Notes: generated by a model not told the origin, from the sequence alone. A DNA stretch of 64,000 nucleotides from Alphaproteobacteria bacterium (GCA_026990035.1 JALSIM010000015.1:5132-69131); one strand, 5' to 3'. Positions 1 through 12,679 are shown, numbered from the stretch's first letter. A program made the numbers and translations.

Positions 1-1
1 G

Positions 2-1216
2 GCAGCTCGCTCGGCTTCTCGGGCTGAGACGGGAGGGTCCCGCACGGCCACCCCCCGGCCGGCGCGACCCTCCCGTGGGACAGCGATAGCCGGCCGGAAC
101 CGGACGGTTCCGGCCGGTCGTCTCGTTCCCCTCGGCGACGGCGCCGTTCTGGCGCTCCCCGACAGCGGTCGCGTCGCCGTTCTCAATCCTGCGGCACGCT
201 TCGCCTGCGAGGCCCTGGTCGGGGGCCGCCCGTTTTCCGAGGTGGTGGGCGCCTACGCCCGACGCTTCGGCATCCCGATCTCGCGCGCGGAGCGGGATCT
301 CCGCGACCTCCGTCGCGGTCTGCGGAGCCTCGCCCGGGAACCGTCGCCGGCACAGGCGGAACCCGCCGGGCCCGCGGCCGATGCCCCCGCCGATCTCCGG
401 GACGACTACGCACCGGGCCCACGGCCGGTGCGCCTGACGATCCACGGCAGTCCCCGCCTCGCCCGGCTGCTCCGACACCTCCTCGAACCGGCCCGGTCCG
501 CCGGTTCCGCCCGCGTCCGACTGACCGTGACCCGCCACCGGCGCTACTACGACATCCGCCGAGACGGAACCCTGCTCACCCGCACCGACGATCTTCTCCT
601 CGCCCGCAGCGAAACCCTGCGGCATCTCCTGCTGTCGAGCCACGGAAGAAGGCGCTGGCTGGCGTTTCTGCACGGCGCCGCGGTCGCCGGGAACGGCAGC
701 GCCTGGTTGATCGCCGGCAGCAGCGGTTCCGGAAAGAGCACCCTGGCGGCGAGCCTGCTGCGGGGAGGTTTTTCACTGGTCACCGACGACTATGCGCCCC
801 TCGAGGCCGGTTCCGGCCTCCTCTATCGGGTGCCTTTCGCCATGGGTGTCAAGGACGCCAGCATCGCGCTCCTGCGCGATCTGCTGCCGGCCCTGGAAAA
901 ACGTGGCCCCCGGGTGCGGTTCCGCAACCGGGAGGTCCGTTACGTGGCGCCGCCGATGGCCGCGGCCGACCGGCTGCCGGTGGCCGGCCTTCTGTTTCCT
1001 CTCCACGATCCGAGGAGCCGGCCTTCCCTGGCGCCGCTCGCGCCCGAGCAGGCCTTCACACTCTGCGCCCAGGGCGGCGGCTGGTTCGAAGGCTCGCCGC
1101 GGCGGCTCGCCGAACTGGTCTCGTGGTTCCGGCGCAAGCCCGCCTGGCTGGTGACCTATCCCGACAGCCGTTCGGCCCTCGATCTCCTCCTCCCGTTGCT
1201 GGAACGGAAATCTTGA
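2..1216 (+). CDS. PqqD-like (RiPP recognition element) domain fused in frame to an HPr-kinase/phosphorylase-like P-loop kinase domain; the 5' end is not found inside the window
   Basis: The frame is open from base 2, with no ATG/GTG/TTG before the PqqD-like segment. That segment reads LVPLGDGAVLALPDSGRVAVLNPAARFACEALVGGRPFSEVVGAYARRFGIPISRAERDLRDLRRGL. A Pro/Ala linker follows, then Walker A GSSGSGKST followed by LLRGGFSLVTDD, as in the HprK C-terminal domain. Confidence 0.7.
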   Translation, partial: AARSASRAETGGSRTATPRPARPSRGTAIAGRNRTVPAGRLVPLGDGAVLALPDSGRVAVLNPAARFACEALVGGRPFSEVVGAYARRFGIPISRAERDLRDLRRGLRSLAREPSPAQAEPAGPAADAPADLRDDYAPGPRPVRLTIHGSPRLARLLRHLLEPARSAGSARVRLTVTRHRRYYDIRRDGTLLTRTDDLLLARSETLRHLLLSSHGRRRWLAFLHGAAVAGNGSAWLIAGSSGSGKSTLAASLLRGGFSLVTDDYAPLEAGSGLLYRVPFAMGVKDASIALLRDLLPALEKRGPRVRFRNREVRYVAPPMAAADRLPVAGLLFPLHDPRSRPSLAPLAPEQAFTLCAQGGGWFEGSPRRLAELVSWFRRKPAWLVTYPDSRSALDLLLPLLERKS

Positions 1217-2322
1217 CCCGATCCCGGAAGGACGGCTTCGCGCTCCTCTGCCGTCTCCTCGACGCCGCCCTTCTTCGGGCCCATGGAGAGGACCCCGTCG
1301 CGACGGTGGAGCTGCCCCGGCGGATCGACTGGCGGGCCGTGATCGGGATCTCCGGCACCAACCTCGTCACCCCGCTGCTCGGGCACGCCCTCGAAACGCT
1401 GCGTTTGCTGGACACGCTCGAGGAAGAGCCTCGCCGCTATTTCCGCGCGATGACGGACGCCGCCCGCGACCGGAACCGGATCCTGCGGCGGGATCTTCTC
1501 CGGATTGCCGTCGCCATGGAGCGGGCCGGGATTCCGCTCCTCCCTCTCAAGGGCGCCATCCGCCTCCTCGACGGGCTGTACGCGGACGATGCTTGGCGCT
1601 TCATGCACGACCTCGACCTTCTGGTTCCGGCCGATCGGCTGGCGGCCGCGGCCCGCGTCCTCCGAGAGGGGGGCTGGCGCGACCTCGAGGACGAGCCCTG
1701 CCGTTTCGCCCCCCATCTGCCGCCGATGGTCCATCCGGACAGCGGAGCGGTGCTCGAGCTCCACGAGCGGCCGGTGCCGGCCTGGCTGGAGCACATGCTG
1801 CCGGCGGCTTCCCTCTTCGCACGAGCGCGCCCGTTACGTGTCGAGGGTACGACCCTGCTGCTGCCCGATCCCGCCGACCAGCTCCTCCATCTGGTGATCC
1901 ACGGCCAGCTCATGCACGGCCATCTCTACACCGGCCGCCTGCTGCTGCGGGATCTCGTCGAGCTCGTGCGGCTGACCCAGCGGCACGGGAAGGGCATGGC
2001 CGAGGAGGTTCTGCGGCGGCTCGAAACCGCGGGTCACCGGCTGGCCGGTGAAGTCGCCATGGCGACGGCCCGTGCGACCCTGCCGAGCGCCGCCGCCCCG
2101 CTGCCGGCAGCCCGGCCCGCGGCCCGCCTTCTCGCGTCGAAAGCGATCATCCAGCAGCACTCCGGGTTGCTCATGGCGACCCTGGCGCCGGTCGGTGCCG
2201 TGCTCCGCGAACGGCGGGCACACGCCCGTTCGACCGGCCTGCTGCGCCGGCTCGCCGATGCCGGCTACCGGCGCGAGCTCCGGGCGCAATGGCGCGCCTT
2301 CCGTCGCAAGACGAGCTGGTAG
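1213..2322 (+). CDS. Nucleotidyltransferase-family protein (resembles the uncharacterised NTP_transf_5 / PF14907 type)
   Basis: About 369 aa if it starts at TTG 1213, which overlaps the upstream TGA at 1214-1216. The track ORF begins at 1123. It contains FMHDLDLLVPADR (a DxD-type motif) and has high GC3. Confidence 0.55.
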   Translation: MTRSRKDGFALLCRLLDAALLRAHGEDPVATVELPRRIDWRAVIGISGTNLVTPLLGHALETLRLLDTLEEEPRRYFRAMTDAARDRNRILRRDLLRIAVAMERAGIPLLPLKGAIRLLDGLYADDAWRFMHDLDLLVPADRLAAAARVLREGGWRDLEDEPCRFAPHLPPMVHPDSGAVLELHERPVPAWLEHMLPAASLFARARPLRVEGTTLLLPDPADQLLHLVIHGQLMHGHLYTGRLLLRDLVELVRLTQRHGKGMAEEVLRRLETAGHRLAGEVAMATARATLPSAAAPLPAARPAARLLASKAIIQQHSGLLMATLAPVGAVLRERRAHARSTGLLRRLADAGYRRELRAQWRAFRRKTSW

Positions 2323-2362
2323 GCGATCCGCGGCCGATACCCCGCGTTGCCCTGCCGCCTCG

Positions 2363-3085
2363 TCACACCCCCGCGATCGTCCGCAGCGCCTCGCGATTCG
2401 GGATGTAGACCCGCGAGGTCCCGTCGAGGGCGATGGCCCCGAGACGGCGCATCGTGGAGAGCGTGCGACTGACCGTCTCGATCGTCAGCCCCAGATAATC
2501 GGCGATGTCGCTCCGGCTCATCAGGAGATCGACGGGCTCGGCATTGCCGCGTCGCTGCCGGTCGGCGATGGTGAGCAGGAAGGTCGCGAGTCTTTCGCGC
2601 GCCGTCTTCCGACCGAGCAGCAGCATCTGCTCCTGGGCCGCCGCGAGTTCGCTCGATGCCCGGCCGAGCAGATTGCGCTCGAGATGGGGCATCTCCTCCA
2701 GGAGCCGCAGGAACGCGGTTCGTCGAAACCTGCACAGTCGCACCGGCGTCACCGCCTCGGCCGAGTAGACATAGGTCCGACCGAAGGCGAGCCCGAGAAA
2801 GTCGCCGGCCATCAGGAAGCCGGTGATCTGCCGGCGCCCGTCCTGCAGCAACTTGTAGAGCTTGATCATCCCCTCGGTGAGGCTGAACATCTCCTCCGCC
2901 GGCTCACCTTCGTGGAACAGCGTCTGCCCGGCTTCCAGCCGGGCGGTGGTGGCCGCCGCCGAAAAGCGCTTCAGCTCCTCCTCGTCGAGCACGGAGCACA
3001 CGGCCAGATCGCGCGCGTCACAAGCATCGCACGGCACTCCCGCACCGCAACATACCGTCGTCATCGCAGGACCACTCTGTCCCAT
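2363..3085 (-). CDS. fnrL: Crp/Fnr-family transcription factor, FNR/FnrL type with an N-terminal Cys cluster
   Basis: N-terminal CCGAGVPCDACDARDLAVC, a cNMP-binding-like core, and a C-terminal HTH SRSDIADYLGLTIETVSRTLSTMRRLGAI. The start is taken at MGQSGPAMTT; the track ORF extends to 3184. Confidence 0.85.
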   Translation of the reverse strand: MGQSGPAMTTVCCGAGVPCDACDARDLAVCSVLDEEELKRFSAAATTARLEAGQTLFHEGEPAEEMFSLTEGMIKLYKLLQDGRRQITGFLMAGDFLGLAFGRTYVYSAEAVTPVRLCRFRRTAFLRLLEEMPHLERNLLGRASSELAAAQEQMLLLGRKTARERLATFLLTIADRQRRGNAEPVDLLMSRSDIADYLGLTIETVSRTLSTMRRLGAIALDGTSRVYIPNREALRTIAGV

Positions 3086-3189
3086 CGCCGATGCCTCACC
3101 ACCGAGCGGGCGCCGCTCGCACACTGCGGCCACCGGACAGCGACCGCGGCCATGCACTCCCCCGACGAACATGATCATAGGCACGAAAC

Positions 3190-3203
3190 TTGATGTGGGT
3201 CAA
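3190..3203. promoter_or_regulatory. Candidate FNR/FixK box TTGAT-GTGG-GTCAA
   Basis: Read directly from the sequence. It has one mismatch to the TTGAT-N4-ATCAA consensus. It lies in the divergent region between fnrL and the 3275 ORF. Confidence 0.5.
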
Positions 3204-3274
3204 TGAGACCCATCGGCGCGCTCCTAGCTTCGGTGGTCATCTGTCCATCATCATTGGATGCCGCAGTCCCCGAG

Positions 3275-3772
3275 ATGCCGAAATGGAGCTGGGTACGGCT
3301 CGGCGCGAAGGATCTTGCGATGATCTGGCCGCTCGTTTCGGTGGGCGACGAAGATCTCTCGCGCGAAACCTGGCAACGGGCGACGGCGGGCTGGCTCGAG
3401 AAAAAGGACCGTGGGGTGGTCGCCATCCGCGTCGCCGGGGGGCCCGCCCTCGCCGCGTTCCAGTTCGCGGCCGAGGGGCCGGAGGGATGCGCTCCCTGCT
3501 GCTTCATCGTGCGGCTGTGGGTGGTGGAGCCGGGCCTGCCGGGACGGAGCCTGCGCGCCTGTCTCGCCATGGCCCGGAACTTCGCACGCGCCCACGCGTT
3601 TCACGGCGTGTTCCTGGAACGGGCGGCGGTCGACCCGCATCTCGATGATCGACACGTCGATCGCTGCGCCGGCCATTGCGGCTATCTGAGCTGCCGCGAG
3701 GGGTGGTACGCACCCCCGACCGGCATCCACGATGTCGTGACACTGCCGCGCCGTCGCGCGGGGCAGGATTAG
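3275..3772 (+). CDS. Hypothetical Cys-rich protein, weakly GNAT-like
   Basis: High GC3 in this frame. FIVRLWVVEPGLPGRSLRACLAMARNFA resembles GNAT motif A. Cys motifs are GCAPCC and RCAGHCGYLSC. The start was moved from 3203 to MPKWSW because 3203 sits inside the FNR box. Confidence 0.35.
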   Translation: MPKWSWVRLGAKDLAMIWPLVSVGDEDLSRETWQRATAGWLEKKDRGVVAIRVAGGPALAAFQFAAEGPEGCAPCCFIVRLWVVEPGLPGRSLRACLAMARNFARAHAFHGVFLERAAVDPHLDDRHVDRCAGHCGYLSCREGWYAPPTGIHDVVTLPRRRAGQD

Positions 3773-4674
3773 TTCCGCAACTCGAGCCCCGCCGGGCCGA
3801 GCCCGGCGACCACCGCCTCGCGGGCCATGCGGGCATGATCGAAGGGATTGGCCTTGGCCGGATCCTGCTCGGCCTCGACGACCAGCCATCCACCATAGCC
3901 GCCCTCACCCAGGATTCGCAGGAAGGAATCGAAATCGATCGCTCCCTCGGGATCGCCGGGCACGGTGAACACGCCCCCGACGACGCCCTGGAGGAAGCTC
4001 CAGTCCTCCTCGCGCAGCCGCTTCAGCACCCGAGGACGGATGTTCTTGAGATGTACATGGGTGATCCGGTCCCGCCAACGCCTCGTCGTCGCCTCGATGT
4101 TGCCGCCGGCGAACAGCAGATGACCGGTATCCAGCAGCAGTCCCACCGCCTCGCCGGTACGGCGCATCAGGAGATCGATCTCGGCTTCGCTTTCGACCAC
4201 CGTCCCCATGTGGTGATGGAAGGCCATCGGGCATCCCTCGGCGGCCAACCATTCGGCGAGGGCGGTGAGCTTCTCACCGTAAGGTGCGAACTCGGCTTCG
4301 GGCATGACCGGACGTGCGCTCACCGGTGTGTCCATGCTTCCCTGCACGGTGCCGGTGGTCTCGGCGTAGACGACCACGCTCGCGCCCGACTCGCACAGCA
4401 GGTGCAGATGATCGCCGATCCGCCGCTTTTCCTCCTCGAGGGAACGCGCCCGGAGTTCGCCCGAGAACCAGCCACCGACGAGCGTCAGCCCGTAACGCTC
4501 CAGAAGCGGTCGGAGAACCGCCGGATCGTTCGGGAACTTTCCTCCCTTCTCGATGCCGCTGTAACCCGCAAGTCGCGCCTCGGCGAGGCATTGCTCGAGC
4601 GGAATGTGACCGCCGAGTTCGGGCAGATCGTCGTTGGACCAGCCGATCGGATTGATCCCCAGCCGCACCGCCAT
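3769..4674 (-). CDS. iolE: Myo-inosose-2 dehydratase (xylose-isomerase-like TIM barrel)
   Basis: Starts MAVRLGINPIGWSNDDLPELGG, typical of IolE. An AAGGGAGAA RBS lies upstream. It sits immediately downstream of iolD. Confidence 0.85.
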   Translation of the reverse strand: MAVRLGINPIGWSNDDLPELGGHIPLEQCLAEARLAGYSGIEKGGKFPNDPAVLRPLLERYGLTLVGGWFSGELRARSLEEEKRRIGDHLHLLCESGASVVVYAETTGTVQGSMDTPVSARPVMPEAEFAPYGEKLTALAEWLAAEGCPMAFHHHMGTVVESEAEIDLLMRRTGEAVGLLLDTGHLLFAGGNIEATTRRWRDRITHVHLKNIRPRVLKRLREEDWSFLQGVVGGVFTVPGDPEGAIDFDSFLRILGEGGYGGWLVVEAEQDPAKANPFDHARMAREAVVAGLGPAGLELRN

Positions 4675-4688
4675 CGCGGCTTCTCCCT

Positions 4689-6533
4689 TCAGATCCCGAG
4701 ACGCTGACGTCGTTTGCCCTCGAGATGTTCCTCGAAGGCCCGGCGTACGCTGTCGCGGACACTGATGCCGGGGGTTCCCGTTTCCCACCAGGCCCCGTTG
4801 CCTTCCGTCCAGTCGCGGGGATCGACGCGGATGTGGATGACGGTCGTGCGGTCGGCGGCCTTGGCGCGGCGAAACGCTTCCTCGAATTCGCCGATCCCAC
4901 GGACGGTGATGCCGATCGCCCCCATCGCCTCGGCGTGTCCGGCGAAATCCACCGGGACCAGCTCACGGATGCGGCAGTCCTCGAGCTGGTTGTTGAAGCT
5001 CGGAATGCCCTTCGCCCGCTGCAATCGGTCGATCACCGCGAAGCCGCCGTTGTCGCAGACGACGACGATCAGTTTCATGCCGGTGAGCACCGAACTGTAG
5101 ATGTCGGAGTTCATCATCAGATAGCTGCCGTCGCCGAGCATGGTGATCACCTCGCGGTCGGGATCGGCCATCTTGGCCCCCCAGGCGCCGGAGATCTCGT
5201 AGCCCATGCAGGAAAAGCCGAACTCGCAGTCGAAGGTGTCGGTCGCCCTGGCCCGCCAGTTCATGCAGAGCTCGCCGGGGAGACCGCCGGCCGCCGTCAG
5301 CACCAGATCTCGCTCGTCGCAGAGCCGGTTGACCGCGCCGACGACGTGCGAATAGGCGGGGAGTTCGGCGTTGGTGGGGGCCGTACGCCGGTCGACGAAG
5401 GCGTTCCAGGCCGCATACTCTTCGACTCCGCGGCGTACCCACTCCTGCGGCGCCCGCCAGTCGCCGAGCGCTTCCGAGAGCTCGCCGAGCACCACCAGCG
5501 CATCGCCCACGACCGGCTGGGCGCGATGTTTGCGGGCGTCGAAGCGGGCGGCGTTGATACCGATGAAACGGGCATCCTCGGCGAACAGCGACCAGGAGCC
5601 GGTGACGAAGTCCTGGAGCCGGGTGCCGACGGCGAGGACGACATCCGCTTCGGCGGCGAGATTGTTGGCGCTCGCCGAGCCCAGGATGCCGATCGGTCCC
5701 ACGTTGCCCGGATGGTCGTGCGGCAGCACCGTCCGCCCGGCCACGGTTTCCGCGACCGGAACCGCGTGGCGCATGGCGAACCTCGCCAGTTCCATTTCCG
5801 CTTCCGAGTACCGTACGCCGCCACCGGCGATCAGCAGCGGACGACGGGCCTGCTTCAGAAGCTCGGCCGCGGCGCGGAGCTGCCGGTGATCGGGCCGTGG
5901 GCGCGACGGCTCGTGCAGAACCGGTTCGAAGAAGCGCCGAGGATATTCGAACACCTCGCCCTGGGCATCCTGACAGAGACCGAGAAAGGCCGGTCCGCAG
6001 TCGGCCGGATCGAGCATGGTGGCCACCGCCTGCGGCAGGGATTCGACGATCTGCTCCGGTCGGCTGATACGGTCCCAGTAGCGGACGACCGCCTTGAAGG
6101 CGTCGTTGACGCTGATCGTGGGATCACCGAAATGCTCCACCTGCTGCAACACCGGATCGGGCGCGCGGCTGGCGAAATAGTCGCCCGCCAGCAACAGTAC
6201 CGGCAGCCGGTTGGTGTGCCCGACGCCGGCGGCGGTGACCATGTTCGCCGCGCCGGGACCGATCGAGGAGGTCGCCACCATGATCTGCCGGCGCTTCTTC
6301 GCCTTGGCGAAGCCCAGCGCGGCCAGCGCCATTCCCTGCTCGTTCTGCCCGCGCCAGGTCGGGAATTCGGCCTTCACCGCCTCCAGCGCCTCGGAGAGGC
6401 AGGTCACGTTGCCGTGGCCGAAGATCGCGAACACCCCCGGGAAAAGAGGCACCTCCTCTTCCCCGATTCGGGTTCGCTGTGCCATCAAGTAGCGCACCAG
6501 CGCCTGCGCCATGGTCAGCCGGACGGTCTTCAT
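4689..6533 (-). CDS. iolD: 3D-(3,5/4)-trihydroxycyclohexane-1,2-dione acylhydrolase (ThDP enzyme)
   Basis: 614 aa, starts MKTVRLTMAQALVRYL, has a ThDP-binding GDGSYLM..N motif, and lies next to iolE. Confidence 0.9.
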   Translation of the reverse strand: MKTVRLTMAQALVRYLMAQRTRIGEEEVPLFPGVFAIFGHGNVTCLSEALEAVKAEFPTWRGQNEQGMALAALGFAKAKKRRQIMVATSSIGPGAANMVTAAGVGHTNRLPVLLLAGDYFASRAPDPVLQQVEHFGDPTISVNDAFKAVVRYWDRISRPEQIVESLPQAVATMLDPADCGPAFLGLCQDAQGEVFEYPRRFFEPVLHEPSRPRPDHRQLRAAAELLKQARRPLLIAGGGVRYSEAEMELARFAMRHAVPVAETVAGRTVLPHDHPGNVGPIGILGSASANNLAAEADVVLAVGTRLQDFVTGSWSLFAEDARFIGINAARFDARKHRAQPVVGDALVVLGELSEALGDWRAPQEWVRRGVEEYAAWNAFVDRRTAPTNAELPAYSHVVGAVNRLCDERDLVLTAAGGLPGELCMNWRARATDTFDCEFGFSCMGYEISGAWGAKMADPDREVITMLGDGSYLMMNSDIYSSVLTGMKLIVVVCDNGGFAVIDRLQRAKGIPSFNNQLEDCRIRELVPVDFAGHAEAMGAIGITVRGIGEFEEAFRRAKAADRTTVIHIRVDPRDWTEGNGAWWETGTPGISVRDSVRRAFEEHLEGKRRQRLGI

Positions 6534-6712
6534 GGGATCCCTCTTCTCGCTGGCGACCCGCGCGAAGTCGGGCAGCGCCTCCCCCGACGGAGACCCATCC
6601 TAGCGCCGCGACCGCCGGCGGGAAAGCGGAAAATGAAACGCCAATTCCAAATTATTCAGATCGTGAAACATACCGTCCACGAGCCACCGGCTCCGAAGGC
6701 GGGCGAGCGCGC

Positions 6713-7639
6713 ATGATCGTACGTCGTCACGGCCCCGGGCGCACCGCGGACACCCGCGGCACCGACCGCCGGCTGATCTGGGCGGTGGTCGTCAATCTCC
6801 TGCTGACGGTGGCCCAGGTAGCCGGCGGCGTGCTGGCCGGGAGCCTCGCCCTGATCGCCGACGCGGTCCACAATCTGAGCGACGCCCTCTCCCTGGCGAT
6901 CGCTCTCTTCGCCCGCCGGATCGCCCGCCGTCCCGCCCATCCCGGGATGACCTTCGGCTACCGGCGAGCCGAGATCGTCGCCGCTCTGATCAATCTGACG
7001 ACCCTCGTCGTGATCGGCCTCTATCTGATGTCCGAAGGCATCGCCCGGCTGTTCGCTCCGATCCCGGTGGACGGCTGGCTGATCGTGATCATCGCCGGGG
7101 TGGCTCTGGTCATCGATCTGGCCACCGTCGCCCTGACCTTCCGTCCGGCTCGCGGCAGCATGAACATCCGCGCCGCATTTCTGCACAATCTCGCCGATGC
7201 TCTGGGTTCGGTCGCGGTGATCGTCGCCGGTGCGGCGATCCTTCTCTACGGCTGGACCATCGTCGATCCGCTGGTCACCCTCGCCATCGCCGGCTACGTG
7301 CTTTGGCACGCGTTCCGGGAAATCGGACCGGCCATGCGTATCCTCATGGAGGCTGTGCCTCCCGGCCTCGATGTCGCGGAGATCGCCGCTGCCCTGTCGG
7401 AGATCGAGGGGGTGACGGATGTCCATCATCTCCACGTCTGGTCCTTCGACGAGCACGAATACGCGATGGAAGCCCACATCCTCCTCGAGGAGGCGGACCT
7501 CGACCGCATCCGAACCGTCAAGAAGGAAGCCCGACGCCGGCTCGCGGAGCGCTTCTCGATCCGCCATGCGAGCCTCGAGATCGAGTTCGCCGACGAACAT
7601 TGCCCGGAGCGCGAAAAACGGCTGGTTGCGCCCCACTGA
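6713..7639 (+). CDS. Cation diffusion facilitator (CzcD/ZitB-like) metal efflux transporter
   Basis: Shows LIADAVHNLSDA and HNLADALGS motifs, six predicted TM segments and a C-terminal cytoplasmic domain. ATG at 6713. Confidence 0.85.
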   Translation: MIVRRHGPGRTADTRGTDRRLIWAVVVNLLLTVAQVAGGVLAGSLALIADAVHNLSDALSLAIALFARRIARRPAHPGMTFGYRRAEIVAALINLTTLVVIGLYLMSEGIARLFAPIPVDGWLIVIIAGVALVIDLATVALTFRPARGSMNIRAAFLHNLADALGSVAVIVAGAAILLYGWTIVDPLVTLAIAGYVLWHAFREIGPAMRILMEAVPPGLDVAEIAAALSEIEGVTDVHHLHVWSFDEHEYAMEAHILLEEADLDRIRTVKKEARRRLAERFSIRHASLEIEFADEHCPEREKRLVAPH

Positions 7640-7690
7640 GCCACGCTAAGACGCGGCCGGTCCTGGTGCGAGGGAGGGAGATTCCGAGAG

Positions 7691-8692
7691 ATGGTCCGTT
7701 TCGCCCTGTTCGGTGCCGGCCGCATCGGCCGCATGCACGCCGACAACATCGCCGTCCATCCGCACGCCCGGCTGGTCGCCGTCTACGACGTCCTGCGCCC
7801 CGCCGCCGAGGCGGTGGCCGAGAAACACGGCGCCCGCACCGCCACCGGCGTCGAGGAGATTCTCGAAGATCCGGAGGTCGACGCCGTTCTGATCGCCTCC
7901 TCCACCGACACCCATGTCGATCTGATCACCCGCGCCGCCAAGGCGGAAAAGGCGGTGCTCTGCGAAAAACCGATCGATCTCGACCGCGAGCGTGTCGATG
8001 CCTGCTGGGAGGAGATCGCCCCCCTCGAACCCTTCGTCCAGATCGGCTTCAACCGCCGCTTCGACCCCTCCTTCGCCCGCCTGCACCGGAGCCTGCGCGA
8101 AGGCGAACTCGGGGGGCTGCGCCAGCTCCTGATCACCAGCCGCGATCCCGACATCCCCTCGCGCGAATACATGGAGGTCGCGGGCGGGCTGCTGCGCGAC
8201 ATGACCATCCACGACTTCGACATGGCCCGCTTCCTGCTGCCCGAGGAGCCGGTGGAGGTGAGCTGCTTCGCCGCCGCCCTGATCGACCCGGTGGTGGCCG
8301 AGCTCGGCGATCACGACACCGCGATGGTGCTGCTGCGCACCGAGAGTGGCATCCAGGTCTGCATCAACAACTACCGCCGCGCGGTCTACGGCTACGATCA
8401 GCGCATCGAGGCGATGTGCGAGGGGGGAGCGATCCTCGCCGACAACATGCGCCCGACCACTCTCGAGCGCTGGACGGCGGCCCACACCGAGGCCCGCGAC
8501 CCGCTCCTGCACTTCTTCGTCGAGCGCTATCGCGAGGCCTATGTCCGCGAGCTCGACGCCTTCATCGAGGCGCTGGAGGAAAAGCGCGAGCCGCCGGTAA
8601 CCTTCGAGGATGGCCGCCGCGCCCTGATCCTCGCCGATGCGGCCTACGAATCGCTGCGCAGCGGCCAGACGGTCACCGTCGACTACGACTGA
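7691..8692 (+). CDS. iolG: Inositol 2-dehydrogenase (Gfo/Idh/MocA family)
   Basis: Starts MVRFALFGAGRIGRMHADNI and contains the EKP motif (CEKPIDLD). Its context is the iol genes. Confidence 0.8.
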   Translation: MVRFALFGAGRIGRMHADNIAVHPHARLVAVYDVLRPAAEAVAEKHGARTATGVEEILEDPEVDAVLIASSTDTHVDLITRAAKAEKAVLCEKPIDLDRERVDACWEEIAPLEPFVQIGFNRRFDPSFARLHRSLREGELGGLRQLLITSRDPDIPSREYMEVAGGLLRDMTIHDFDMARFLLPEEPVEVSCFAAALIDPVVAELGDHDTAMVLLRTESGIQVCINNYRRAVYGYDQRIEAMCEGGAILADNMRPTTLERWTAAHTEARDPLLHFFVERYREAYVRELDAFIEALEEKREPPVTFEDGRRALILADAAYESLRSGQTVTVDYD

Positions 8693-8807
8693 GCCCCTCC
8701 GCCGCGCCCACCGCGAATGCTTCCGACGCCGCGGCGTGCCGCGGACAGCTTTCCGCAGCAGGGCCCCTGTGCCATTTTCATCCCGGCAGCCAGTCGGAGA
8801 GAGCATC

Positions 8808-9374
8808 ATGGCCACGGTTCTGCCACCGCCGGTCCGGCGGCACCGCTTCAGCCTCGAAGACTATCACCGCATGGTCGAAGCCGGGATCCTCGGCGAAGAG
8901 GATCGGGTGGAGCTGATCGAGGGGGAGTTGGTGGAGATGATACCGATCGGGCCACGGCACGCCGAGACCGTCAGCCGGCTCGTTCGCTTCTTCGTCCGCG
9001 GCACCCCGACGGTCGTCCGGGTTCAGGACCCCGTTTCGCTCCCGCCCGCCTCCGAGCCACAGCCCGATCTGGCCGTCGTTCGCGAGCGCTCCTACCGGGA
9101 CTCGCATCCCGGGCCCGAGGACGTGCTGCTCTTGATCGAAGTCGCCGATACTTCGGCCGGCTACGACCGCGAAGTGAAGATCCCGCTCTATGCCCGGCAC
9201 GGCATCCCGGAGGTGTGGCTGGTGGACCTCCAGAAGGGACGGATCGAGGTCTACCGGGAGCCGGCGCCCGACGGCTATTACCGCGAATGCCGCATCCACA
9301 AGGCCGGCGAGCCGATCCGCCCGCTCCGCCTCCCCGATCTCGCCCTCGATCCGAAGCTCGTGCTGGAGGCCTGA
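8808..9374 (+). CDS. Uma2-family (DUF820) PD-(D/E)xK nuclease-like protein
   Basis: Contains FSLEDYHRMVEAGILGEEDRVELIEGELVEM, then EVADTSAGYDREVKIPLYARHGIPEVWLVD. Confidence 0.75.
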   Translation: MATVLPPPVRRHRFSLEDYHRMVEAGILGEEDRVELIEGELVEMIPIGPRHAETVSRLVRFFVRGTPTVVRVQDPVSLPPASEPQPDLAVVRERSYRDSHPGPEDVLLLIEVADTSAGYDREVKIPLYARHGIPEVWLVDLQKGRIEVYREPAPDGYYRECRIHKAGEPIRPLRLPDLALDPKLVLEA

Positions 9375-9454
9375 GCGGCCCGCTTCCACCGCCGCATGCG
9401 GAGTTCGCGAATTTGCGCTAGACTGTTGCGGTCCCGGAGGATGGAGGGTCGTCG

Positions 9455-10024
9455 ATGGCGGAGCCCGCCGAGAAACTGCCGACCACGGTCGCCGAGTTCC
9501 TGAAGTGGGCGCAGGGGCGCCCGGGCCGTTACGAGCTGGACGACGGCCATGTCGTGGCGATGACGCCGCAACGTGCCATCCACGCTCGCACCAAACACCG
9601 GGTTGCACGCGCGCTGGAGGATGCCGTGGAAGCCGCGGGGCTGCCCTGCGAGGTCTACCCCGACGGCATGACGGTGCGGATCGACCGGAGCACGGCCTTC
9701 GAGCCCGATGCGCTGCTGCGCTGCGGCGAACCGCTCCATGCGGATGCGATCACCGTCGAGGATCCGCTGCTGGTGGTCGAGGTGGTTTCCCCTTCGAACG
9801 AAGCCAGCGATACCGGCCACAAGCTCGCCGGCTATTTCCGGGTTCCCGGCCTCCGCCACTACCTGATCGTCGATCCGCTCGGCCGGGTGGTGATCCATCA
9901 CGAGCGGACCGAGGGTGAGGAGATCCGCACCCGCATTCTCACCAAGGGCATCCTGCGTCTCGCTCCCCCGGGCATCGAGGTCGAGCTCGAAGAGCTCTTC
10001 CCGAAACCGTGCCGCGAGGGCTGA
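9455..10024 (+). CDS. Uma2-family (DUF820) PD-(D/E)xK nuclease-like protein, second diverged copy
   Basis: Contains TVAEFLKWAQGRPGRYELDDGHVVAM, then VEVVSPSNEASDTGHKLAGYFRVPGLRHYLIVDP. Confidence 0.75.
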   Translation: MAEPAEKLPTTVAEFLKWAQGRPGRYELDDGHVVAMTPQRAIHARTKHRVARALEDAVEAAGLPCEVYPDGMTVRIDRSTAFEPDALLRCGEPLHADAITVEDPLLVVEVVSPSNEASDTGHKLAGYFRVPGLRHYLIVDPLGRVVIHHERTEGEEIRTRILTKGILRLAPPGIEVELEELFPKPCREG

Positions 10025-10034
10025 ACGGGAAAAC

Positions 10035-10084: not shown

Positions 10085-12679
10085 TCAGGCGGCGAGTCGG
10101 ATCTCCTGTCCGTCGATGACGAGGCCGTGCTCGTTGGCATCGACCTTGACGGTATCGCCTTCCTCGATTCTGCCCTCGAGGATCATGGTCGCCAGCGGAT
10201 CCTGCAGATGCCGCTGGATCATCCGCTTGAGGGGCCGCGCACCATAGACCGGATCGTAACCGGCCTTGGCCAGCCAGTCCTTGGCCGCATCGGTGATCTC
10301 GAGGGTGATGCGCCGATCCTCCAGGAGCCGGCGCAGCCGCCGGAGCTGGATCTCGACGATGTCGCGCATCTGCGCCCGCCCGAGCCGGTTGAAGAGGATG
10401 ATCTCGTCCAGCCGGTTCAGGAATTCGGGACGGAAGGTCGCCCGCACCACCTGCATCACCTGCTCGCGCGCCTGGCTCGCCGGGGCCCCTTCGGGCAGTG
10501 CGGCCAGATACTCCGAACCGAGGTTGGAAGTGAGCACGATCAGGGTGTTGCGAAAGTCGACCACATGCCCCTGGCTGTCGGTCAGCCGCCCGTCGTCGAG
10601 CACCTGCAGCAGCACGTTGAAGACGTCGGGATGGGCCTTCTCGACCTCGTCGAAGAGGATCACCTGGTAGGGCCGCCGACGCACCGCCTCGGTCAGTACG
10701 CCGCCCTCCTCGTAGCCCACATAGCCGGGAGGCGCACCGATCAGCCGGGCCACGGAGTGCTTTTCCATGAACTCCGACATGTCGATCCGCAACAGCGCCC
10801 GCTCGTCGTCGAACAGGAACTCGGCCAGCGCCTTGCAGAGCTCGGTCTTGCCGACGCCGGTGGGACCGAGGAACAGGAAGGAGCCCATCGGCCGGTTGGG
10901 ATCCTGGAGCCCGGCCCGGGCCCGCCGCACGGCGTTGGAGACTGCCTGCAGCGCGTCCTCCTGGCCGACCACCCGCTCCCGCAGCTTCTCCTCCATGCGG
11001 AGGAGCTTCTCGCGTTCGCCCTCCATCAGCTTGTCGACCGGGATCCCGGTCCAGCGGGAGACGACCTGGGCGATGTCCTGGGAGGTGACCTCCTCCTGGA
11101 CCATTCGGGTGGCCTGTTCGGCCTCGGCCTCCCGGAGCTTGCGCTCGAGTTCCGGGATGGTGCCGTAGGCCAGCTCACCGGCCTTGGCCAGATCTCCCGA
11201 GCGTTGCGCCTGCTCGAGTTCGATGCGGGCGCGGTCGAGCTGCTCCTTGAGCCGCCGGACCTCCTCGAGCTTGCTCTTTTCGGCCTGCCAGCGGGCGTTC
11301 AGTTCGGCCGCCTGCTGCTCGAGCTCGGAGAGCTCCTTCTCCAGTTTCTCGAGCCGCTGCCGGGAAGCCGGATCGGTCTCCTTCTTGAGGGCCTCGCGCT
11401 CGATCTTGAGCTGGATGATCTTGCGATCGAGCTCGTCGAGCTCTTCGGGTTTGCTGTCGATCTGCATGCGCTTCCTGGCCGCCGCCTCGTCGATCAGATC
11501 GATCGCCTTGTCCGGCAGGAAGCGGTCCGAGATGTAGCGATGCGACAGGGTGGCGGCGGCGACGATGGCGCTGTCGGTAATGCGCACACCGTGATGCAGC
11601 TCGTACTTCTCCTTGAGCCCGCGCAGAATGGAGATGGTGTCCTCCACCGAGGGCTCGGGGACGAAGACCGGCTGGAACCGCCGCGCCAGCGCCTGATCCT
11701 TCTCGATGTACTTCCGGTATTCGTCGAGGGTGGTGGCGCCGATGCAGTGCAGCTCGCCGCGGGCCAGCGCCGGCTTGAGCATGTTGGAGGCGTCGATCGC
11801 ACCTTCCGCCTTGCCGGCTCCGACCAGGGTGTGGAGCTCGTCGATGAAGAGGATGATCTCGCCCTCCGAGGCGGTCACCTCTTGGAGGAGGGCCTTGAGG
11901 CGCTCCTCGAACTCGCCGCGGTACTTGGCACCGGCCAGCATGGCCCCGAGATCGAGCGCCAGGATCCGCCGATCCCGGAGACCCTCCGGCACATCGCCAT
12001 TGACGATGCGCTGGGCCAGACCCTCGACGATGGCCGTCTTGCCGACGCCGGGATCGCCGATCAGCACCGGATTGTTCTTGGTGCGCCGCGACAGCACCTG
12101 GATGACCCGGCGAATCTCCTCGTCCCGCCCGATCACCGGATCGAGCTTGCCTTCCCGCGCCTGGGCGGTGAGATCGCGGGTGTACTTCTCGAGCGCCCCG
12201 TAGCCTTCCTCGGCGGTGGCGCTCTGTGCGGTCCGCCCCTTGCGGATCTTGTCGATGGCGGCATTGAGCGCCTGCGGCGTCACACCGGCATCCTCGAGCG
12301 CCTTCGCGGCGTCGGTCGCCGACATCGCGATCGCCAGCAGCAGACGTTCGACGGTGACGTAGGAATCGCCCGCCTTCTTGGCGATCTCCGAGGCCCGTTC
12401 GAACAGTCGCGCGGTCTCCGGCGCCAGGTAGAGCTGGCCGGCACCGGCTCCTTCCACCTTCGGCTGCTTCTTCAGGAGCAGCTCGACATTGGCCAGCGCC
12501 AGCTTGGGATCACCACCGGCCTCGCGGATCAGCCGGGCGCAGAGCCCTTCCGGATCGTCCAGCAGAACTTTCAGAATATGTTCCGGCAGAAACCGCTGGT
12601 GGCCCTCGCGCAGCGCGAGCTGCTGTGCCGACTGGAGAAACCCTCGCGCGCGCTCGGTGTAGTTCTCGAAATCCATCAT
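10085..12679 (-). CDS. clpB: ATP-dependent chaperone ClpB
   Basis: Starts [19 protein letters not shown]. It has two AAA+ modules (GDPGVGKT and GPTGVGKT) and a long coiled-coil middle domain. RBS AAGGGGGA. Confidence 0.95.

Follow-up and report, generated by a model that had tools for sequence, protein, structure and literature searches.

The linear polyphosphorylated peptide (LPP) system of Bacillota comprises LppA, LppB, LppK, LppN, LppS and LppD (Popov et al., Nat Commun 2026, PMC13381572). In this system Ser3 of a linear peptide is polyphosphorylated by LppK, whose operon also encodes an RRE and an NTP-transferase; deletion of the transferase changed nothing. A signal-peptidase-I homologue, a dedicated SipW-like enzyme, cuts off the leader, and the system is reported as restricted to Bacillota (PMC13381572). 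In the biosynthesis of lasso peptides, the HprK homologues PadeK and ThcoK phosphorylate the C-terminal Ser of linear precursors, and the pseudomycoidin nucleotidyltransferase PsmN adds one or more hexoses to that phosphate (PMC8498205). Bufferins and some other RiPPs have signal peptides as leaders (PMC11626156, PMC13056109). The HPr-rel-A system (TIGR04352 and TIGR04353) is known only as curated models, and no paper on it was found.

The locus described here lies at the left edge of a stretch of 64,000 nucleotides from an Alphaproteobacteria bacterium (GCA_026990035.1, JALSIM010000015.1:5132-69131), referred to below as the window. It is, on balance, probably a compact RiPP-type operon of three genes encoding a precursor peptide, a fusion of an RRE to a kinase, and a PF14907 nucleotidyltransferase. 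The operon most likely makes a small phosphorylated peptide and represents a previously undescribed relative, in Proteobacteria, of peptide systems studied so far only in Bacillota.

Gene arrangement at the window edge

The features of the locus are collected in Table 1. A preliminary description of the first 2.3 kb had presented an orphan module with no visible precursor. Both statements have to be abandoned: the first 27 bases encode the last eight codons of a precursor gene (GSSLGFSG and a TGA) and align with the ends of the small ORFs in two other loci (L001 and L002), and because this gene ends within the window and adjoins the fusion gene, the module is not orphan. About 189 bases of the gene are upstream of the window. 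The short ORF was recovered whole on a contig that is 99.97% identical to window positions 1-10027 (L095), with the complete gene (P0331) at 8301-8516.

Table 1. Positions of the features at the left edge of the window
Feature	Position	Strand	Basis
Precursor gene (71 aa), 3' end, 8 codons and TGA	1-27	+ (frame 1)	translation; alignment
RRE-kinase fusion protein, residues 7-410 of 410 and stop	2-1216	+	P0001, AF2, profile search
PqqD/RRE domain, lasso-B1 type (P0001 residues 40-117)	101-334	+	Pfam PqqD, profile comparison, AF2
Pro/Ala-rich interdomain linker	335-394	+	translation; pLDDT falls to about 58 here (AF2)
HprK/PEPCK-fold P-loop kinase domain	395-1201	+	HMM matches, invariant residues, Foldseek
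Invariant His230	671-673	+	homologue alignment
Walker A, GSSGSGKST	716-742	+	translation, alignment
Asp268-Asp269	785-790	+	alignment
PF14907 nucleotidyltransferase, 369 aa from TTG 1213	1213-2322	+	PF14907 HMM, alignment, fold
FnrL/FixK-type Crp-family regulator	2363-3184	-	cNMP_binding and HTH_Crp_2; FnrL model 185 bits, below its cut-off

The frame beginning at base 2 is open up to its TGA at 1214-1216, as had been reported, and the earliest ATG, GTG or TTG in it is a GTG at 242. The module had been called cut by the window edge, which is correct, but the fusion gene loses only six codons. The intact protein (P0001, 410 aa) is identical across the part in the window and has the N-terminus VTAAMA 5' of base 2. 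In the clade of L002 the fusion gene starts with an ATG immediately after the stop of the upstream gene, and the same codon is ACG in the window. The 5' end of the fusion gene overlaps the precursor gene by about 44 nt.

The transferase gene was likewise read correctly: its TTG at 1213-1215 overlaps the kinase TGA (TTGA, 4 nt) and is in frame to 2322, and FMHDLDLLV is found at 1600-1626 with a DxD motif inside. The PF14907 model confirms the family (138.5 bits against a threshold of 31.2, profile positions 3-248 of 249). A homologue of equal length (P0170, 369 aa) is 86% identical, and K113, G114, H132, D133 and D135 are invariant in 13 homologues, K113-G114 and D133-x-D135 being the catalytic G-x and DxD motif. 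The fold is that of a Pol-beta NTase and resembles ANT(2'')-Ia and LnuA. The Crp-family regulator next to it, in convergent orientation, is conserved as a neighbour in L001, L002, L004, L006, L093 and L095 and was not found beside the operon in L086-L092.

The three operon genes overlap or abut and co-occur across phyla. The architecture is not due to chance because homologues of the proteins share it from 88% down to about 26% identity. An exhaustive profile search gave 2,635 cluster representatives at E<=1e-30, a count that may take in some unfused kinases; the best 150 of the 2,635 are full-length fusions. One relative (P0019, 638 aa) has all three enzyme domains in a single polypeptide. 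The family comprises hundreds to thousands of clusters at 50% identity, with hosts in Alphaproteobacteria and relatives in Planctomycetota, Campylobacterota, Gammaproteobacteria and Bacteroidota.

The RRE-kinase fusion protein

The AF2 model of the fusion protein has a pLDDT of 85.9 and a pTM of 0.82. All motifs quoted in the preliminary description were located where it had placed them. These include the PqqD/RRE pattern (LVPLGDGAVLALPDSGRVAVLNPAA at 122-196 and ACEALVGG...RRGL at 203-322), the Pro/Ala linker (338-397) and, after the Walker A motif, the HprK signature LLRGGFSLVTDD at 755-790.

The Pfam PqqD model (PF05402, gathering cut-off 23.4 bits) matches the domain alone (window 101-349) with 26.5 bits (E 8.2e-6) and the full-length fusion protein with 22.4 bits, slightly under the threshold. 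Sixteen of 24 family members match as well. The best solved relatives are the lasso RREs TbiB1 (5v1u, E 4.6e-12) and TfuB1 (6jx3, E 7e-9), with which the RRE profile aligns end to end; the lasso PqqD model NF033530 (25.3 bits, sub-threshold) and the ScmD PqqD model TIGR04248 match weakly. The predicted structure has strands at residues 45-50, 53-58 and 63-67 followed by helices at 69-79, 84-95 and 99-117, thus a three-stranded sheet and three helices in a winged-helix layout, with pLDDT around 90 over residues 45-117. Judging from the profiles and the model, the N-terminal segment of the fusion is a PqqD/RRE domain, and its candidate ligand, suggested by the YxxPxM motif, is the adjacent peptide.

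In the kinase part H230, G248, G250, K251, S252, T253 and D268 are invariant among homologues and D269 is present in at least 90%. The earlier reading as an HprK-like kinase stands as regards the PEPCK/HprK fold and the P-loop matches, but the HMM scores are below the curated cut-offs. PF07475 (Hpr_kinase_C) gives E 2.6e-5 and 24.3 bits against 33.3 in the P-loop region, TIGR00679 gives 24.8 bits against 240, and both alignments are limited to residues 223-265, about 43 residues. Foldseek finds PEPCK (E about 1e-6) and HprK/P (1kkl, 3tqf and 1jb1, E about 1e-3). By sequence and modelled fold, the C-terminal part is an HprK-like kinase with an intact His, P-loop and Asp-Asp site.

An ordinary paralogue of HPr kinase/phosphorylase, acting in the control of carbon or nitrogen PTS signalling, would show the same P-loop matches and common fold, although this similarity is only local. 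It would be hard to reconcile with the RRE domain, with the constant linkage to a peptide gene and PF14907, and with the 10 kb flanks of L001, L002, L004, L093 and L095, where no HPr or PTS Pfam family was found. This explanation is extremely improbable.

The best NCBIfam match of the kinase part is TIGR04352 (E 1e-15, 57.7 bits), and the neighbourhood of an "HprK-related kinase A" and a PqqD chaperone, mentioned in the preliminary description, does exist. It is found in Sphingopyxis terrae (L019), where TIGR04353 (49.7 bits), TIGR04352 (222 bits) and PF14907 (184 bits) match overlapping genes in the order PqqD, kinase, PF14907. The window protein could be a fused member of the uncharacterised HPr-rel-A system and share its substrate and role. 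However, the window protein is no member of TIGR04352, its score being far below the cut-off of 200 bits, and the RRE matches the lasso and ScmD PqqD models but not TIGR04353 (cut-off 35 bits; no match at E<0.1). The HMM of the precursor leader, moreover, finds no peptide in the split Sphingomonad loci or in any of roughly 60 kinase-only loci. The low TIGR04352 score, the missing TIGR04353 match and the kinase-only loci without a precursor point to a sister family, and membership of the HPr-rel-A system is unlikely.

The precursor family and its leader

The leader of the window precursor has R21-R22, Y34-x-x-P37-x-M39, a hydrophobic stretch and G48-K-A50. It is followed by a Gly/Asp-rich core of 21 aa, GSFFRKGGDGGDGGSSLGFSG, which is part of a hypervariable region. 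It is one of at least 155 peptides of an unannotated family with a conserved leader (RR, Y/A/C-x-x-P-x-M, a hydrophobic stretch and small-x-Ala) and a Gly-rich hypervariable core that often ends in GFS-x. Motifs were counted in the 120 of these at least 155 peptides that are listed as P0049-P0168. The pattern x-x-x-P-x-[LMVIFA] is found in 119 of the 120, Ala at +16 in 109, and S/G/A at +14 in 106; the tails vary, and 42 end in FS followed by C, G, S or A. The RR is invariant in an alignment of 96 peptides, and RR or RK is found across phyla. At the Tyr position of YxxP the family varies (Y 42, A 44 and C 28 of 119). After the leader there is a hypervariable tail of low complexity and 10-60 residues. 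One large subfamily has Lys/Arg/Gly cores with a Tyr terminus, and at least one member (P0066) lacks any Ser or Thr; serine phosphorylation can therefore not be universal in the family.

All alphaproteobacterial loci read, and loci of other phyla as well, have the peptide beside the fused kinase, which upholds the earlier conclusion that the substrate is a peptide. Among the 22 fetched loci with a full-length fusion, a count that takes in duplicates and near-identical strains, as do those that follow, 19 have an adjacent PF14907-like gene and 16 a peptide matched by the leader HMM. The HMM also matches a peptide in two further loci with a partial kinase match, Planctomycetota L057 and L092, and two Bacteroidota loci carry a peptide recognised by eye. 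The transferase is missing in some loci (L006, L087 and L082). The absence of lasso genes, noted earlier for the visible 2.3 kb, extends to the flanks: at the loci read, the Pfam-annotated flanks of 7-10 kb contain neither an Asn-synthase-like cyclase nor a transglutaminase-like protease, nor any peptidase or ABC exporter, about 10 kb per side being inspected. The flank lists checked for a peptidase or exporter were those of L001, L002, L004, L086-L093 and L095.

The operon might still be a lasso tailoring module: the small ORF would then be a lasso precursor, with the genes for its B2 protease and C cyclase at some other place in the genome. In lasso leaders to which B1 RREs bind, Tyr, Pro and Leu occupy positions -17, -14 and -12, and Y34, P37 and M39 of the window peptide stand at the same three distances from the cleavage predicted to follow Ala50. 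Cleavage at this site would leave a core with Gly1 and Asp9, which we take to be compatible with a macrolactam of nine residues, and the window RRE is most similar to lasso B1 proteins (TbiB1, TfuB1 and NF033530). Lasso genes are normally clustered, however, and neither cyclase nor B2 protease is found within 7-10 kb at any Pfam-annotated locus read. Nor does the family conserve an acidic residue at core positions 7-9, which the HR40, L086 and Tyr-terminated subfamilies lack. Pairs of a kinase and PF14907 are known as lasso tailoring enzymes (PMC8498205), but the conserved -2 Thr of lasso leaders (PMC10368454) is missing: the family has His, Ala, Glu or Lys and the window peptide Lys. A lasso product is, in sum, quite improbable.

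By inspection, the precursor leader has the RR, h-region and small-x-Ala of a signal peptide. The Tat signal model TIGR01409 (threshold 16.7 bits) matches seven of 96 peptides, all below the threshold (best E 0.014), and does not match the peptide of the window itself (P0052/P0331 type). This anatomy, which recurs across phyla with RR or RK, and the weak Tat matches would also suit a genuine exported or membrane-inserted mini-protein, the export or function of which is controlled through reversible phosphorylation by the fusion, acting as a signal-peptide-binding chaperone-kinase. HprK/P is a kinase/phosphorylase, no peptidase or exporter is encoded nearby, and loci without the transferase are in line with such a role. 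The conserved leader followed by a hypervariable low-complexity tail is nevertheless the pattern of RiPP precursors and not of a folded protein, and the coupling to PF14907 together with the triple fusion points to a biosynthetic pathway. Evidence of a phosphatase or phosphorylase was not obtained, and a mini-protein under such control is not a likely explanation.

Proposed pathway and comparison with known systems

For the RiPP-type operon we infer how the leader is bound, which residue is phosphorylated, what group is transferred, where the peptide is cleaved and by which route it is exported. The RRE domain would dock the leader via its YxxPxM segment, as suggested by the motif and by its spacing from the predicted cleavage site, which is that of lasso leaders bound by B1 RREs, and the tethered kinase domain would phosphorylate a core serine, possibly several times. 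The likeliest phosphosite would be the conserved penultimate Ser70 of the GFS-x terminus, by a logic like that of paeninodin; the alternative, by a logic of the LppK type, would be Ser52, beside the predicted cleavage site. The nucleotidyltransferase might then decorate the phosphoserine with a sugar or nucleotide, in the manner of PsmN in pseudomycoidin. Since no dedicated peptidase or exporter is found nearby and the leader is twin-arginine/Sec-like with small-x-Ala, export by the general secretion machinery and leader removal by signal peptidase I are probable. The product would be a modified peptide of about 2 kDa released outside the cytoplasm.

A tentative extension is that the conserved leader is both the ligand of the fused RRE and a working twin-arginine (or Sec) signal peptide. 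The RRE-kinase and the transferase would then retain the precursor in the cytoplasm and modify it there before it passes to general export, and housekeeping signal peptidase I would cut after the small-x-Ala site. Such a dual role would explain why the widespread family can do without a peptidase or exporter of its own. If true, no earlier RRE-dependent RiPP pathway would have used Tat, and Gram-negative bacteria would offer a new source of small Gly-rich peptides, phospho-decorated and located in the periplasm or at the surface.

If the proposed pathway is right, peptide phosphorylation by HprK-like kinases with PF14907 decoration is a widespread Gram-negative pathway and not a curiosity of Bacillota or lasso peptides. 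With at least 155 unannotated precursors that share a recognisable leader, the substrate and enzymes are defined and masses can be predicted, such as 7605.83 Da for the precursor P0331, so that the system can be tested directly. It could help to show what role PF14907 transferases have, how an RRE functions as part of its own enzyme, and if a RiPP leader doubles as a Tat/Sec signal. The leader motif can also be used for mining further clusters of the same type.

Compared with HprK/P and ATP-dependent PEP carboxykinase, the window kinase shares the fold and the catalytic constellation of P-loop, His and Asp-Asp, but it lacks whole-protein HMM membership and the N-terminal HprK domain. HprK/P acts on HPr, whereas the substrate of the window kinase would be the peptide presented by its fused RRE. 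In the HPr-rel-A system the three modules follow one another as in the window, with gene overlaps and an adjacent PF14907; the difference is an unfused kinase that scores above the TIGR04352 cut-off.

Bufferins resemble the window family in a precursor with an export signal and in export and release by housekeeping machinery, both of which are presumed for the window peptide. Their modifying enzymes are MNIO/DUF2063 instead of a kinase and an NTase, and their signal peptides are of the Sec or lipoprotein type, whereas the window leader is twin-arginine-like and, as its motif suggests, may also be an RRE ligand. Paeninodin and pseudomycoidin share the HprK-like kinase, the nucleotidyltransferase and the B1-type RRE. 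Their equipment also includes a lasso cyclase, a B2 protease and an ABC exporter, all three missing near the window operon, and their kinase is a separate protein. The phosphorylated Ser is terminal in the paeninodin type, in contrast to the penultimate conserved Ser (GFS-x) of the window family.

The LPP system has in common with the window operon a non-lasso RiPP logic, in which a lasso-type RRE, an HprK-like kinase and an NTP-transferase are encoded in an operon with the precursor, a conserved leader containing YxxP ahead of a variable core, and leader removal of the signal-peptidase-I type, which is presumed for the window. This likeness is one of architecture. The RRE is discrete in LPP but fused to the kinase in the window. 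The LPP cluster encodes a SpI-like peptidase, by which that family was discovered, and a MsbA-like exporter, while the checked flank gene lists of the window family contain neither. Of the LPP leader consensus YxxPxVLxHQxIxFETxxS the window leader shares only YxxPxM, the rest being RREVLQRFGTYAAYTAPAMMVLLSSRQGKA; the leader pattern of its family, RRExLxRFGxYAAxTAPAMxVLL...small-x-A, has a twin-arginine/signal-peptide anatomy that differs from LPP. Because a non-lasso system of RRE, HprK-like kinase and NTP-transferase has been characterised in Bacillota (PMC13381572), the logic proposed here is no longer unprecedented. LPP is the closest characterised system, and the window operon a fused, proteobacterial variant of the same kind with a signal-like leader.

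Precursor peptide gene and its family

The module at the left edge of the window includes a precursor peptide gene. Frame 1 of window bases 1-27 encodes GSSLGFSG followed by TGA, the 3' end of that gene, and the view in the preliminary description of an orphan module with no precursor in the visible 2.3 kb had to be abandoned. These bases align with the 3' ends of the 68-71-aa ORFs that lie directly 5' of the fusion gene in every close relative. The missing 189 bases are carried by two public contigs, L093 (99.5%) and L095 (99.97%; both identities to window 1-10027), and extension beyond base 1 through them gives the gene for the precursor P0331. A ribosome-binding site, GGAGGGAG, lies ahead of this gene, and about 44 nt at the 3' end of the gene are shared with the start of the fusion gene.

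Searching with a profile built from seven upstream peptides gives 155 unnamed proteins, 51-115 aa long. RR in the leader is invariant in a 96-sequence alignment, and the leader motif x-x-x-P-x-[LMVIFA] is found in 119 of the 120 listed peptides; most family members have Ala or Cys in place of the motif's Tyr (YxxP). Ala is located at +16 from the first position of the motif in 109/120 listed peptides, and Ser, Gly or Ala two residues before it in 106/120. Conservation drops right past this Ala and the tails are hypervariable: Gly/Asp-rich ending in GFSG, GFSS or CGFSC, Lys/Arg/Gly-rich ending in Tyr, Pro/Thr/Ser-rich, or Cys-rich. NCBIfam and Pfam hold no curated family for the peptides, which gave only weak sub-threshold matches to HpxX, formate_TAT and TAT_signal.

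The Tyr-terminated peptides (P0066 and P0073-P0131; L087 7776-7982) form a subfamily with Lys/Arg/Gly-rich cores ending in SHY, GHY or NGY, and at least one of these cores (P0066) is without any Ser or Thr. This subfamily, Ser/Thr-free core included, argues for a modified residue that differs between clades. The kinase target in these peptides is possibly the C-terminal Tyr.

Locus L091 has three tandem precursor genes (6699-7658) of one leader type with Cys-rich, Pro-rich cores, situated between the fused kinase gene (5231-6382) and the PF14907 gene (7802-8902). In locus L008 the precursor (10246-10458, core ...STARPAAASET) is found downstream of the kinase and transferase genes, not upstream; the large flanking ORFs (6806-7954 and 10474-11535) are ATP-grasp-like by eye only.

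The RRE-kinase fusion and the coupled nucleotidyltransferase

No stop interrupts the frame from base 2 before the TGA at 1214-1216, and GTG 242 is its first canonical start. A protein on record, P0001 (410 aa), is identical to the window protein, and only six codons (VTAAMA) lie past the window edge. This identity, and homologues of equal length and layout at identities from 88% down to about 26%, show that the fusion and ORF2 genes are real. GTG 242 was rejected as the fusion start since RRE strands conserved in all homologues would be lost. For ORF2, homologues and gene calls favour the start coupled by TTGA at 1213 (P0170, 369 aa), or a later one, over GTG 1123. Terminator-like hairpins at 970-989 are inside the kinase ORF and were taken as chance. 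The open frame, the gene overlap and the motifs described earlier were all recovered (see table).

The proposal of an N-terminal PqqD/RRE domain is borne out by several comparisons. The full-length fusion is sub-threshold in Pfam and NCBIfam scans for PqqD (22.4 bits, cut-off 23.4), Hpr_kinase_C (24.3 bits, cut-off 33.3) and TIGR04352 (57.7 bits, cut-off 200), and the N-terminal domain scanned alone reaches 26.5 bits for PqqD, above the Pfam threshold. Pfam PqqD is also matched by 16 of 24 homologous N-terminal domains. When made into a profile, the domain hits two solved RREs of lasso-peptide systems, TbiB1 (E 4.6e-12, almost full-length) and TfuB1 (E 7e-9), and the AlphaFold2 model of the fusion, built from 28 homologues, is confident (pLDDT 85.9, pTM 0.82) and has the RRE topology.

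The assignment of the second domain as an HprK-like kinase stands for the fold, which is of HprK/P type, and for the catalytic motifs, which are intact, but not for the Hpr_kinase_C score. In Foldseek the fusion model matches ATP-dependent PEP carboxykinases (E about 1e-6) and the HprK/P catalytic domains 1kkl, 3tqf and 1jb1 (E about 1e-3). Homologues share His230, the GxGKST loop and Asp268 without exception, and Asp269 almost without exception. An exhaustive profile search gave 2,635 representatives at E<=1e-30, of which the best 150 all span both domains with about 360-415 aa. This search shows the RRE-kinase fusion to be common.

ORF2 is, as proposed, a full-length PF14907 protein (138.5 bits), and K-G and D-x-D are invariant in 13 homologues. 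Its model (pLDDT 84.4) resembles the O-nucleotidylyltransferases ANT(2'')-Ia and LnuA and, more distantly, FKRP and MenT3; a PDB sequence search with ORF2 gave no match, and the likeness is at fold level only.

Co-occurrence and gene neighbourhood

Among the fetched loci, an HMM of the leader finds the peptide at all alphaproteobacterial fused-kinase loci, in Planctomycetota L057 and Campylobacterota L017, and in no Sphingomonad locus. Two Bacteroidota MAG loci have leaders that by eye show this build as well (RK or RR, a hydrophobic segment, then A-x-A), and both were missed by the HMM at E<1e-3. These peptides (L009 7580-7855 and L007 7179-7439) lie upstream of distant fused kinases, and their cores are unlike the others, with His/Gly repeats then Lys/Arg/Gly, or Asp/Asn/Gly-rich.

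A PF14907-like gene adjoins the fusion, usually overlapping, in 19 of the 22 loci with a full-length fusion, a count that takes in duplicate and near-identical-strain loci; none is adjacent in L006/HR40, L087 and L082. P0019 (L086 4794-6710) is a single 638-aa protein consisting of RRE, kinase and PF14907 transferase. A precursor ending in GGGFSS is located just upstream of it (4539-4736). No lasso cyclase, B2 protease, other peptidase or ABC exporter was found beside the operon in the Pfam-annotated 7-10 kb flanks of the loci read, which agrees with the earlier remark that cyclase and leader protease are missing.

The neighbouring FnrL-type gene is shared by L001, L002, L004, L006, L093 and L095, relatives with kinase identities as low as 47%, and is missing from more remotely related loci. 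An FNR/Crp box (TTGAT-N4-ATCAA) with at most two mismatches was looked for ahead of the peptide gene in 8 loci and was absent, and no support was found for a link between this regulator and the operon. ORFs of 168-214 aa after the Crp gene in L001, L002, L004, L006 and L095 are likened to the 189-aa ORF of the window by position alone. The Tad genes are divergent from the peptide gene and precede it in L001, L002, L006, L093 and L095, not in L004. The inositol-catabolism-like genes at 3769-8692 are ordinary housekeeping context. The whole 64 kb window has no tRNA genes and no Rfam families at gathering threshold, and promoter and terminator scans rendered nothing relevant.

Features of the operon, its products and its surroundings (window positions unless stated otherwise)
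Feature	Position	Strand	Remark
Tad pilus-assembly genes (TadE, TadE, Tad/VWA, TadG-like)	L095 5456-7820; L093 7156-9520	-	located shortly before the start of the window
Precursor peptide P0331 (71 aa)			MKARRNAQRRHEDAASKGLERREVLQRFGTYAAYTAPAMMVLLSSRQGKAGSFFRKGGDGGDGGSSLGFSG; sequence via near-identical contigs; monoisotopic mass 7605.83 Da, predicted unmodified core 1947.87 Da
Disordered N-terminus	fusion residues 1-39		AlphaFold2
RRE topology: strands, then three helices	fusion residues 40-117		AlphaFold2
Low-confidence linker, then compact domain	compact domain: fusion residues 138-406		AlphaFold2
RRE strands	122-196		LVPLGDG...NPAA
RRE helices	203-322		ACEALVGG...RRGL
Pro/Ala linker	338-397		
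Walker A	716-742		GSSGSGKST
Second kinase motif	755-790		LLRGGFSLVTDD
Gene overlap TTGA	TTG 1213-1215; TGA 1214-1216		TTG in frame with ORF ending 2322
ORF2 motif	1600-1626		FMHDLDLLV
FnrL/FixK-type Crp regulator	2363-3184	-	N-terminal Cys cluster; convergent with operon
189-aa ORF	3203-3772	+	no Pfam or NCBIfam match
AP_endonuc_2/IolE-like gene	3769-4788	-	family from syntenic genes in L001, L002
TPP enzyme IolD-like gene	4689-6533	-	family from syntenic genes in L001, L002
Cation-diffusion-facilitator gene	ORF 6479-7639	+	family from syntenic genes in L001, L002; start codon probably further into the ORF; splits the Iol-like genes
GFO/IDH/MocA IolG-like gene	7691-8692	+	family from syntenic genes in L001, L002

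Proposed mechanism and comparison with known systems

Domain identities, intact catalytic motifs, operon structure, the leader/core pattern and cross-phylum co-occurrence are shown directly, and analogy suggests how the products might work together. The RRE would bind the peptide leader. With the predicted cleavage after Ala50, the YTAPAM segment has its Y at -17, P at -14 and M at -12, the same spacing as in the lasso leader motif bound by B1 RREs. The tethered kinase would phosphorylate a core Ser. In lasso precursors the C-terminal Ser is the target of HprK homologues (PMC8498205), and in a linear core Ser3 is polyphosphorylated by the kinase LppK (PMC13381572); the candidate phosphosites here are accordingly Ser52 or Ser70, the latter within the conserved GFS-x terminus. 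The PF14907 enzyme might then modify the phosphate; PsmN adds hexoses in pseudomycoidin (PMC8498205).

The leader is built like a signal peptide: RR, then a stretch of moderate hydrophobicity (Kyte-Doolittle mean about 1.5 for the 11 residues that begin at the first motif position), a basic c-region and small-x-Ala. Since the operon also has no peptidase or exporter beside it, the peptide is probably exported by Tat/Sec and cleaved by signal peptidase I. HMM evidence for the putative Tat reading is weak. A signal-peptidase-I homologue removes the leaders of LPP (PMC13381572), and bufferins are RiPPs with Sec signal leaders (PMC11626156).

By gene content in the 7-10 kb flanks the operon is not a lasso cluster, and an HprK/P identity was rejected since whole-protein models failed and there is no PTS context. 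The TIGR04352/TIGR04353 neighbourhood (HPr-rel-A) named in the preliminary description does exist, in Sphingopyxis terrae NBRC 15098 (L019), which was used as control. There a split cassette of TIGR04353, TIGR04352 and PF14907 (6993-9592) lies after genes for a MarR regulator and a TonB-dependent receptor, and no precursor candidate was recognised at it. The window operon does not belong to HPr-rel-A (TIGR04352 57.7 versus 200 bits, no TIGR04353 match), and the two differ in the precursor, none being detected for HPr-rel-A.

Literature searches on HprK-related kinases, TIGR04352/TIGR04353, PF14907 and RRE with HPr kinase rendered only PMC13381572 and PMC8498205 as relevant. The linear polyphosphorylated peptide (LPP) system is said to be restricted to Bacillota (PMC13381572), whereas the window operon is found outside that phylum and lacks the defining SpI peptidase, the exporter, the discrete RRE and the leader consensus of LPP. 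In the proposed working logic, however, the two are alike.
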